NCBI GenBank assembly: GCA_031289415.1
Contig: JAITPN010000096.1
Location: 1-34,486, forward strand
DNA length: 34,486 nucleotides
Source: Prevotellaceae bacterium
Lineage (GTDB): Bacteria; Bacteroidota; Bacteroidia; Bacteroidales; UBA932
Reading direction: 5' to 3'
The position numbers and the translations under genes are program-made. Shown piece after piece: positions 21,038 to 23,116 of this stretch (within the stretch, counting starts at the first letter, position 1; the number at the start of each line of letters is the position of its first letter). The notes below the pieces were generated by a model that was not told the DNA's origin, searched no databases, and was given only the letters and a program-made list of their open reading frames with translations.

Positions 21038-23116
21038 ATGATTACAAGCAAAACAAACAAATTGATGACGGCAGCCGTAGCGCTGCTATTGGTGGTTGCC
21101 TCGTGCGGCGAGGACACGGTTGTTACCGAAACGCCCCCAGAACTAACCCCCGAATTGTCGGTGGACAAAACTACTATTGATGCCGCCACAGAAAGCGGCA
21201 CATACGCCGTAGCGGTAACTGCCAACGTGCCGTGGACGGCGGCGAGCAGCGACGCATGGTGCACCGTAAGTCCCACGTCGGGCGAGGGCGACGGTACGCT
21301 CGCCGTGGCAGTAGCTGCCAATGACGACATCGTTGCCCGTACCGCAACCCTTACCGTGACGGCAGAGGGCGTGGCGGCAAAGACGATTGCCGTAACGCAG
21401 GCGGCAAAACCTGTCTATGGCGTAAGTTTTAATTCTAACGGCGGCTCGGCGGTAGCATCCATCGCCGGCGTGCGGCAGGGGCAGACGCTTGATTCGCTCC
21501 CTGAGCCTACGAAAGACGGCTATGTGTTTGAGGGCTGGTTTACCGACGCGACATTCGGCAGCCGCTTTACTACTACGACGGCAGTAACGGCAGACGTTAC
21601 GCTGTATGCCAAATGGACAATCGAACCCATATATACCGTAACGTTTAATTCAAACGACGGCTCGGCGGTAGATCCTATCGCCGGAATCCGGCGGGGGCAG
21701 ACCCTTGATTCGCTCCCTGAGCCTACAAAAGACGGCTATGTATTTGAGGGCTGGTTTACCGACGATACGACATTCGCCATCCGCTTTACTACGGCTACGC
21801 CGATAACGGCAGACATCACGGTGTATGCCCAATGGACGACCGAACCCTTATATACCGTAACGTTTGATTCCAACGGCGGCTCGGCGGTTGCGTCTATCGG
21901 CGGCATCAGAAAAGGACAAACGGTTGCGTCGCTGCCTGCCAATCCCACAAAAGCGAGCCATATTTTCGAGGGATGGTTTACCGACAACACCACGTTTGCC
22001 ACCCCATTTACTACGGCTACGGCGGTCGCGGCGGACATCACGGTGTATGCCAAATGGACGCCCACCTACACCGTAACGTTTAATTCCAACGGCGGCTCGG
22101 CGGTTGCGTCTGTTAGCGGGCTTCTTTCGGGACAAAAGCTTGCGTCGCTGCCTGCCAATCCCACGAAAGCGGGCAATGTGTTCGGCGGATGGTTTACGGA
22201 CAATACTACGTTTACCACCCAGTTTACTACGGCTACGGCGGTCGCGGCGGACATCACGGTGTATGCCAAATGGACGCCCACCTACACGGTAACGTTTAAT
22301 TCAAACGGCGGATCGGCGGTTGCGTCCATCAGCGGAATTGAACACGGAAAAACGGTTTCGTCCATTCCCACGCCCACCAAAGCCAACAGCGTATTTCAGG
22401 GCTGGTTTAGCGACAACGGTTCGTTCCTCAACGTTTTTGACGCCACCAAGCCCGTAACGGCAAATATCACGGTGTATGCCAAATGGAAAGTGTGGCTTAC
22501 CGCGCCCGCACAGCCTGCCGCAACCACCACAACGCCTAACACCTCTTTGTTTAACGGAACTGTTTCCGGGGGTCAATATTACATTGATAAGGTAAGGCCG
22601 ATTGTGCTCAATTATCCGGATGCTGAGCAATCGACGCTAATTAACATGTTCGCGGGGATACCTATGTCTGTTGTTATTACAGAAGAGGAATACCGGAAAA
22701 GCATCACCCTTGATAAAACGCTCTATGAATATACCGACTGGCACAATGCCGATCATACGTTAAGCGTTACCATCAGCGATATCAATGGCGCATCGGTGAG
22801 CGCTTCCATTACGGAAGTTGTTTCGCTCACTTTGGGCAGCGCAAAGGTGGGTAATTTGAGCGCATCCATTACCAGAGAGACCACCAGCACCGTTGCAAAA
22901 GTTCAAGCCTTAACCACCCAGAGCACATGGGATTTACGGGAATTTAACCCTGCGTATCAGTACAAGGTAATCGTAACCGGTCGCGTTGATATTCACGATT
23001 TCTACTGGAGTCAAGCTTATGTGGGTACATCACTTGGAAGATATGGACCGTTTTCCGCCGTTAAAGTCCAAACCGACACGGTACAAATGATATTAATCAG
23101 CCGCCTCAAACCCTAA
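21038..23116 (+). CDS. Surface lipoprotein: N-terminal BACON domain, five Listeria-Bacteroides (Flg_new-type) repeats, about 210-aa C-terminal domain of unknown function
   Basis: Signal peptide and lipobox (MITSKTNKLMTAAVALLLVVASC). BACON-like segment (VPWTAASSDAWCTVSPTSGEGDGTLAVAV...ATLTVTAEG). 5x about 70-aa repeats (YTVTFNSNGGSAV...GWFTD...ADITVYAKWT). ORF-track start at 20753 lies in the repeat array and is rejected. Confidence 0.8.
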   Translation: MITSKTNKLMTAAVALLLVVASCGEDTVVTETPPELTPELSVDKTTIDAATESGTYAVAVTANVPWTAASSDAWCTVSPTSGEGDGTLAVAVAANDDIVARTATLTVTAEGVAAKTIAVTQAAKPVYGVSFNSNGGSAVASIAGVRQGQTLDSLPEPTKDGYVFEGWFTDATFGSRFTTTTAVTADVTLYAKWTIEPIYTVTFNSNDGSAVDPIAGIRRGQTLDSLPEPTKDGYVFEGWFTDDTTFAIRFTTATPITADITVYAQWTTEPLYTVTFDSNGGSAVASIGGIRKGQTVASLPANPTKASHIFEGWFTDNTTFATPFTTATAVAADITVYAKWTPTYTVTFNSNGGSAVASVSGLLSGQKLASLPANPTKAGNVFGGWFTDNTTFTTQFTTATAVAADITVYAKWTPTYTVTFNSNGGSAVASISGIEHGKTVSSIPTPTKANSVFQGWFSDNGSFLNVFDATKPVTANITVYAKWKVWLTAPAQPAATTTTPNTSLFNGTVSGGQYYIDKVRPIVLNYPDAEQSTLINMFAGIPMSVVITEEEYRKSITLDKTLYEYTDWHNADHTLSVTISDINGASVSASITEVVSLTLGSAKVGNLSASITRETTSTVAKVQALTTQSTWDLREFNPAYQYKVIVTGRVDIHDFYWSQAYVGTSLGRYGPFSAVKVQTDTVQMILISRLKP
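21411..22480 (+). repeat. Intragenic tandem repeats (about 210 bp x5). Copies 3-5 are near-identical at nucleotide level.
   Basis: Long identical nucleotide stretches, e.g. ...acggcggctcggcggttgcgtct... and ...actacggctacggcggtcgcggcggacatcacggtgtatgccaaatggacgcccacctacac... recur. Confidence 0.85.

Follow-up and report, generated by a model that had tools for sequence, protein, structure and literature searches.

The stretch considered here (the window) comprises the 34,486 nucleotides of contig JAITPN010000096.1, from an assembly of a Prevotellaceae bacterium (GCA_031289415.1). The gene in question is an open reading frame (ORF) on its + strand that begins with ATG at 21038, ends with a stop codon at 23114-23116 and encodes 692 amino acids. 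Its GC content (53%, against 46% for the window) is not unusual. The encoded protein is a predicted lipoprotein in which a BACON domain and five Flg_new repeats (R1 to R5) lead to a C-terminal domain of a rare and unnamed family. The features of the gene, with the limits of the repeats taken from pairwise DNA comparison (and, for R1 to R3, from Pfam as well), are the following:

21038..21106, + strand: signal peptide to the lipobox cysteine Cys23 (LVVAS-C), then acidic GEDTVVTE; read from the translation
21152..21406, + strand: BACON domain, residues 39-123; Pfam PF13004 E 2.6e-12, PF19190 E 1.2e-11
21416..21631, + strand: Flg_new R1, residues 127-198
21632..21850, + strand: Flg_new R2, residues 199-271; 85.0% DNA identity with R1
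21851..22066, + strand: Flg_new R3, residues 272-343
22067..22282, + strand: Flg_new R4, residues 344-415; 86.6% DNA identity with R3
22283..22498, + strand: Flg_new R5, residues 416-487; most divergent of the five
22499..22666, + strand: Pro/Thr-rich linker and low-confidence N-terminal part of the C-terminal domain, residues 488-543; AlphaFold2 (AF2) pLDDT 46-77
22667..23113, + strand: core of the unnamed C-terminal alpha+beta domain, residues 544-692; from the family search, alignment and AF2 models
22775..22918, + strand: Ser/Thr-rich amphipathic segment, residues 580-627, a candidate membrane-spanning hairpin; from alignment, profile and hydrophobic moment

The criteria for a lipoprotein were a basic N-region, then a hydrophobic core, and a lipobox whose final Cys falls within about 15-35 residues. 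Read by eye, MITSKTNKLMTAAVALLLVVAS-C23 has all three, and the predicted signal is MITSKTNKLMTAAVALLLVVASC/GEDT, with lipobox Cys23. The preliminary description of this DNA had called the product a lipoprotein made of a BACON domain and five Listeria-Bacteroides repeats, and the lipobox, Pfam and NCBIfam all agree with it. BACON (PF13004) scores 47.0 bits over residues 65-122, where the cut-off is 25, and BACON_2 (PF19190) scores 44.8 bits over residues 39-123. Flg_new (PF09479) matches five stretches within residues 127-487 (E 1e-84, 279 bits), as does the NCBIfam model of the Listeria-Bacteroides repeat, TIGR02543 (128 bits). Residues 39-487 are thus ordinary members of the two families. The C-terminus, for which a check on sorting signals had been proposed, matches no type IX secretion system sorting domain (TIGR04183 or PF18962) in Pfam (E up to 1) or NCBIfam. 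By analogy with the export signal described for other lipoproteins (PMC12853789), the protein may be exported to the surface, and it is probably exposed there or on outer-membrane vesicles.

The remaining 205 residues (488-692) have no significant match in Pfam (E up to 1), NCBIfam, PHROGs or the sequences of the Protein Data Bank (PDB), which upholds the earlier impression that the domain is an unrecognized one. Its relatives are few. With HMMER, 1.84 billion representative proteins were searched exhaustively, and 28 matched at E <=1e-3, just three of them below 1e-30 (one of the 28, the repeat protein P0027, with E 2.7e-4 over five stretches, looked spurious and was excluded from alignments and later scans). 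A word-indexed search of 5.8 billion clusters returned a single relative, P0001, whose protein is truncated at a contig end, and the same kind of search with the family profile gave six matches. Scans of Genome Taxonomy Database (GTDB) genomes, JGI metagenome contigs and IMG/VR did not encounter the domain, nor did a tblastn search of 50,697 phage genomes. Close relatives of the organism or of the gene were found in none of the collections searched.

In all members examined, the domain lies at the extreme C-terminus. What precedes it varies: several BACON domains in P0007, P0012, P0015 and P0021, CHB_HEX_C_1/Fn3_assoc in P0019, and Flg_new_2 in P0024, P0026 and P0029-31. In the other members the domain constitutes nearly the whole of a protein of 230-300 residues. 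A lipobox cysteine is present in at least 20 of the approximately 22 members with complete N-termini (after the scan was corrected by reading the sequences). Scanning the 28 members against Pfam at E up to 10 brought up no recurrent family. The alignment offers no invariant residue of the catalytic type, and the invariant or nearly invariant positions are only Y, W, S, L and G.

A single JGI metagenome, 3300042619, is the source of all three close relatives (P0001, P0002 and P0003), which are three different genes with different neighbors (loci L001, L089 and L090). P0002 is a lipoprotein with three Flg_new repeats and the domain (62% identity over 443 residues), and P0003 has at least six repeats and the domain (52% identity). 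In both, conservation extends over R5, a K-x-W-L-T-A linker and the domain together, and it is the repeats upstream of this unit that vary in number.

For three distant members (P0024, P0026 and P0030) the genomic region is phage-like, with HNH and terminase genes next to the family gene. The distant lipoproteins with Flg_new_2 and the domain that occupy such regions are found at 8001-8843 of locus L082, 8001-8999 of L083 and 8001-9023 of L092. In L083 and L092 the family gene stands between an HNH gene and that of the small terminase, and in L082 it is near genes for a ParB-methylase, a SAM synthetase and HNH. Genes for sigma-70 factors of the extracytoplasmic function (ECF) type occur near members at L001 1003-1788, L082 6763-7281, L083 11733-12278 and L092 12647-13171, and none is found near the gene in the window.

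The domain of the window protein was modeled by AF2 from 28 sequences (pLDDT 80.8, pTM 0.70) and the full-length P0011 from 31 (pLDDT 85.3, pTM 0.76). Both models have the same alpha+beta fold: a strand, a pair of helices, a long strand, a short strand, a helical hairpin of 40 residues, another short strand and two long strands. The order of strands may be written as b1, short b2, an insert of approximately 40 residues, short b3, long b4 and long b5. In modules of the aerolysin type, five long, antiparallel and twisted strands carry, between strands 2 and 3, an insertion segment with patches of Ser and Thr, and the alternating polarity of this segment is the best-preserved feature of the module (PMC9363482, PMC3110756). 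In Toxin_10 proteins the segment is partly helical before insertion, and in promonalysin it forms two helices (PMC9363482). The order of strands in the AF2 models matches the aerolysin type, yet b2 and b3 span no more than 3-5 residues.

Conservation in the family alignment is highest at domain residues 93-140 (protein residues 580-627), which lie between predicted strands 2 and 3. Their composition is 35-36% Ser/Thr and 34% Val/Ile/Thr, compared with 24% Ser+Thr for the core and 20.5% for the C-terminal domain of Cry78Aa. Averaged over the family, the hydrophobic moment of domain residues 83-95 and 108-124 is greater at 160-180 degrees than at 100 degrees, a strong period of two residues with alternation of hydrophobic and polar positions, although AF2 draws domain residues 97-137 as helices.

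When the family profile was compared with PDB sequences, the best match was the Toxin_10 toxin Cry78Aa (E 0.019), exactly over the Ser/Thr segment. The resemblance was pursued with hhalign, using an alignment of Toxin_10 built from five Bacillus plasmid genes. The whole domain scored 39.5 (P 1.7e-5, probability 79%), compared with 12.3 +/- 2.7 for column shuffles and 17.6 +/- 2.7 for block shuffles, and local probabilities ran from 79 to 87%. The hairpin segment by itself scored 28.1, against 7.9 +/- 1.8 for shuffles. Homology to Toxin_10 over the whole domain was nonetheless rejected on two controls, splitting the domain and reversing the template, described below. As a pattern the resemblance holds up; yet it is confined to one part of the domain, is in part palindromic or compositional, and stops short of establishing homology.

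What might such a domain do at the end of such a protein? Alternating polarity, tracts of Ser and Thr and an aerolysin-like order of strands were all found, while comparisons of the whole domain by sequence and by fold came back negative. There are also precedents in the Bacteroidales: the BSAPs are lipoprotein pore-formers (PMC12853789), and an aerolysin-like lipoprotein has been noted in B. uniformis (PMC3110756). Because of the pattern and the topology, together with these precedents, we commit ourselves to the reading that the domain is a pore-forming tip, carried by a protein of the cell surface or of vesicles: binding of a target would fall to the repeats, and insertion of a beta-hairpin into a membrane to the tip. 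Its probability we put at about 0.35. The fusion of the domain to different modules as a C-terminal unit, the lack of a catalytic-type residue and the phage-borne sub-branch were counted on the same side.

According to this model, the BACON domain and the five Flg_new repeats, approximately 460 residues, would serve as a stalk and as the region that binds the target, and the alpha+beta domain of approximately 200 residues at the distal end would be a compact module for insertion into membranes. In the soluble state, the Ser/Thr segment of approximately 45 residues would be packed as a helical hairpin on the long twisted sheet. Contact with the target membrane, along with oligomerization, might then lead the segment to refold into an amphipathic beta-hairpin, comparable to the membrane-spanning regions of toxins of the Toxin_10/aerolysin type. 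The repeats would supply recognition of the target, much as lectin domains do in Tpp toxins, and the lipid anchor would supply delivery, as with the BSAP lipoprotein toxins of Bacteroidales.

Several results weigh against a pore-forming tip. Fold searches of the AF2 models found no significant neighbor in the PDB and no solved toxin; toxins of the Toxin_10/aerolysin type were the top Foldseek matches, below significance. None of the 28 members is matched by a Pfam toxin model. Strands 2 and 3 are predicted to be short, and known aerolysin-type modules are larger than the core here, which has approximately 150 residues. The reversed Toxin_10 template still scored 32.7 with the whole domain and 23.2 with the hairpin segment, so much of the signal is a compositional and periodic pattern that could be convergent, and with the hairpin segment removed the flanks scored 8.9, no better than their shuffles (10.9 +/- 2.7). 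Finally, there is no gene nearby for immunity, for a protease or for a partner.

If a pore-forming tip is nevertheless correct, the family might tentatively be regarded as new: small lipid-anchored beta-pore-forming modules with a single switch from helix to hairpin, found sparsely in Bacteroidales, in at least one further phylum and in some phages, with interchangeable targeting modules (Flg_new, BACON or Fn3-associated), and either separate from the aerolysin/Toxin_10 superfamily or very remotely related to it. We hold this wider proposal more loosely than the pore-forming tip itself.

A plain adhesin is nearly as likely, though still a doubtful proposition. Here the lipid anchor would sit in the outer membrane, the BACON and Flg_new modules would form a spacer stalk and the C-terminal domain would be the distal head that binds a ligand (a glycan or a host or microbial surface), with no insertion into a membrane. 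Flg_new is counted among adhesion factors, and modules of this kind and BACON are widespread in the surface and adhesin-like proteins of gut microbes (PMC7883539). A conserved domain atop stalks of variable length and type is what one sees with tip adhesins, the AF2 fold is compact, confident and globular, with the Ser/Thr segment packed as helices, and the lack of significant similarity to any toxin fold is equally at home here. However, the best-conserved part of the domain is the Ser/Thr segment, in which polarity alternates, and does not look like a pocket of polar or aromatic residues, many members lack a stalk altogether, and neither the Pfam scan nor the fold search turned up similarity to a known carbohydrate-binding domain or adhesin head.

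In a third reading, which builds on the preliminary description, recombination between the repeats, along with slippage in arrays upstream of the gene, would switch the length or the expression of a surface antigen. That description held that three of the five repeats are nearly identical at the DNA level through recent expansion or homogenization, and neither part is borne out. Tandem Repeats Finder detects a period of 216 nucleotides across 21421-22320, and the units are 216-219 nucleotides long, but only the pairs R1/R2 (85.0%) and R3/R4 (86.6%) stand out, the remaining pairs being 64-75% identical. The longest exact run is one of 60 nucleotides, in frame, shared by R3 and R4 (beginning at 22007 and 22223); no other pair shares more than 23. 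R3 and R4 differ in 20 of 72 codons, and 14 of the differences are non-synonymous. To judge from the sequences, R3 and R4 have diverged over a long time, with one patch that was possibly homogenized, rather than having expanded recently, and an in-frame unequal exchange between them is conceivable.

The arrays upstream of the gene, which the preliminary description also mentioned, are certainly present. They lie within the intergenic region of 702 nucleotides 5' of the gene. The features that flank the gene are these:

20462..20495, + strand: Bacteroidetes-type promoter-like motif, TTTG-N22-TACCTTTG; from a motif scan, the function being putative
20600..20691, + strand: heptanucleotide array, (ACCGCAC)x13; Tandem Repeats Finder, 98% matches
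20744..20991, + strand: six copies of a 41-bp unit; Tandem Repeats Finder
23150..23184, no strand assigned: terminator-like hairpin, GGCTGTCC-ggttttt-GGGCAGCC then TCTTTT, between the convergent genes for the lipoprotein and a phospholipase D (PLD)-type protein; seen by eye and unlisted in the scan

If the promoter-like motif is used, both arrays would be contained in a 5' leader of approximately 535 nucleotides (the window has seven such motifs, where shuffles lead one to expect 1.9). Each 41-bp unit consists of two palindromes, TCCCCACGTGGGGA and CCGGAAcTTCCGG, and the region of the array is predicted to fold far better than its shuffles (z -8.6). Searches for the unit in the rest of the window, 90 fetched loci and metagenome contigs gave a single chance match, in an unrelated coding region, and a search of Rfam with the upstream region gave just sub-threshold chance matches to eukaryotic families. 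Separately, an element of 72 nucleotides occurs twice in the window, at 3771-3842 and 9475-9546, 5.7 kb apart with 99% identity. It carries the Bacteroidetes-type promoter motif (TTTGTAAG...TACCTTTG) and may be a strong promoter reused in a region of ribosomal-protein genes.

The 60-nucleotide run, the perfect 13-copy heptamer and the six-copy array between promoter-like motif and start codon, and the variable number of repeats among homologues are what a contingency locus might be expected to show. Repeat number had been offered as a point on which the idea might fall, and it is indeed not invariant among the only close homologues (three in P0002, five here and at least six in P0003), but those homologues are proteins 52-62% identical, not strains of the source organism. 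Upstream of P0002 there is a strong GGAGG ribosome-binding site, which the window gene lacks, but there are no such arrays, even though P0002 is the closest homologue with upstream sequence. The site suggests another lineage, or even another phylum, so the difference in repeat number is one between homologues rather than between strains, and the presence of the site in one gene and not in the other hints at transfer between lineages. Furthermore, the coding repeats are just 64-87% identical, and Bacteroidales usually vary their surface structures through invertible promoters rather than slippage in simple sequences. A contingency locus is, on balance, unlikely.

Least probable is that the protein protects the envelope or has a phage-related role, for example superinfection exclusion or masking of a receptor, with the domain binding a phage or an envelope component: phage-like surroundings of P0024, P0026 and P0030 and the recurrent ECF sigma genes might speak for it, but the window gene sits among housekeeping genes with no phage genes, and the domain has no PHROG family and no match in the phage genomes or IMG/VR.

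Those housekeeping genes are rpsD, rpoA and rplQ upstream and, downstream, the convergent PLD-type (cardiolipin-synthase-like) gene, followed by genes for a ROK kinase, an ABC ATPase, a TonB-dependent barrel and UvrC. Neither a polysaccharide-utilization locus nor a phage, a secretion system or an immunity-like gene is present there. The label of variable surface antigen or adhesin locus, given earlier, therefore survives only in part: the lipid-anchored modules are of the adhesin type, but the setting is not an island of surface antigens. Across 185,579 species representatives, identity to the PLD protein does not exceed 63%, the best matches being from Phocaeicola and Bacteroides, and the organism is therefore one of the Bacteroidales without a close sequenced relative. 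Synteny was sought through this neighbor in 80 loci of Bacteroidaceae (51-63% identity), and in none of them do rpoA, rplQ or the target gene adjoin it, so the comparison is uninformative about the history of insertion.

Other observations concern the neighbors themselves. The 3' end of rplQ has a tandem repeat of 15 nucleotides at 20298-20331 (2.3 copies, 100% match), within the low-complexity C-terminal tail, rich in Ala, Pro, Glu and Thr, of a ribosomal protein L17 of 186 residues. Two ORFs, 24513-25037 (-) and 32110-32679 (+), of 174 and 189 residues, have no Pfam match at E <=1e-5. The N-terminal half of the first is hydrophobic, and as listed it overlaps the start of the ROK kinase ORF.

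If the protein is a pore-former, it would represent a third and structurally distinct class of lipoprotein toxin in gut Bacteroidales, beside the MACPF BSAPs and the cholesterol-dependent cytolysin (CDC)-like proteins. It would also mean that the hairpin of the aerolysin type can work in an unusually small module, a portable membrane-active unit of approximately 150-200 residues with swappable targeting domains, some of them carried on phages. If the domain is only the head of an adhesin, the biological interest is modest, yet the family is still new and very rare, with no Pfam entry or clear structural neighbor. The corrected identities of the repeats matter in either case to anyone who would flag the locus as hypervariable.

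How does the protein compare with known systems? Surface proteins built of BACON and of Flg_new (of the InlB B-repeat type) explain residues 39-487 but say nothing about the C-terminal 205 residues. ThermoDBP, an archaeal single-stranded-DNA-binding protein (PDB 3tek), matches the fold of the domain at 3-7% sequence identity, but it is cytoplasmic, archaeal and binds DNA, while the domain here belongs to an extracytoplasmic bacterial lipoprotein; the match was regarded as a generic alpha+beta resemblance.

The Toxin_10/Tpp proteins (Cry78Aa, Cry35Ab1, BinA/B and Tpp80Aa1) also place an N-terminal binding module ahead of a C-terminal part with long twisted strands, and they and other toxins of the aerolysin type have a Ser/Thr-rich insert of alternating polarity between strands 2 and 3 that is partly helical when soluble. 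They differ in that similarity is undetectable outside the hairpin segment, and the core is smaller here, with short strands 2 and 3. Toxin_10 proteins bind through a beta-trefoil and are encoded on Bacillus plasmids, whereas the present protein is lipid-anchored, has BACON and Flg_new as its putative binding part and comes from a Gram-negative genome of the commensal type.

The BSAPs are distinguished by the MACPF domain, for which the 692-residue protein has no Pfam match (PF01823), by two hairpins instead of the single candidate here, and by a neighboring resistant-receptor allele, to which nothing in the genetic context here is similar. What the two have in common is the status of lipoprotein (exposed on the surface in BSAPs and probably so here) with acidic residues after the lipobox cysteine, regions for recognition of a receptor, putative here, that are separate from the rest (PMC12853789) and, if our proposal for this domain is right, the principle by which a helical segment is turned into a beta-hairpin.

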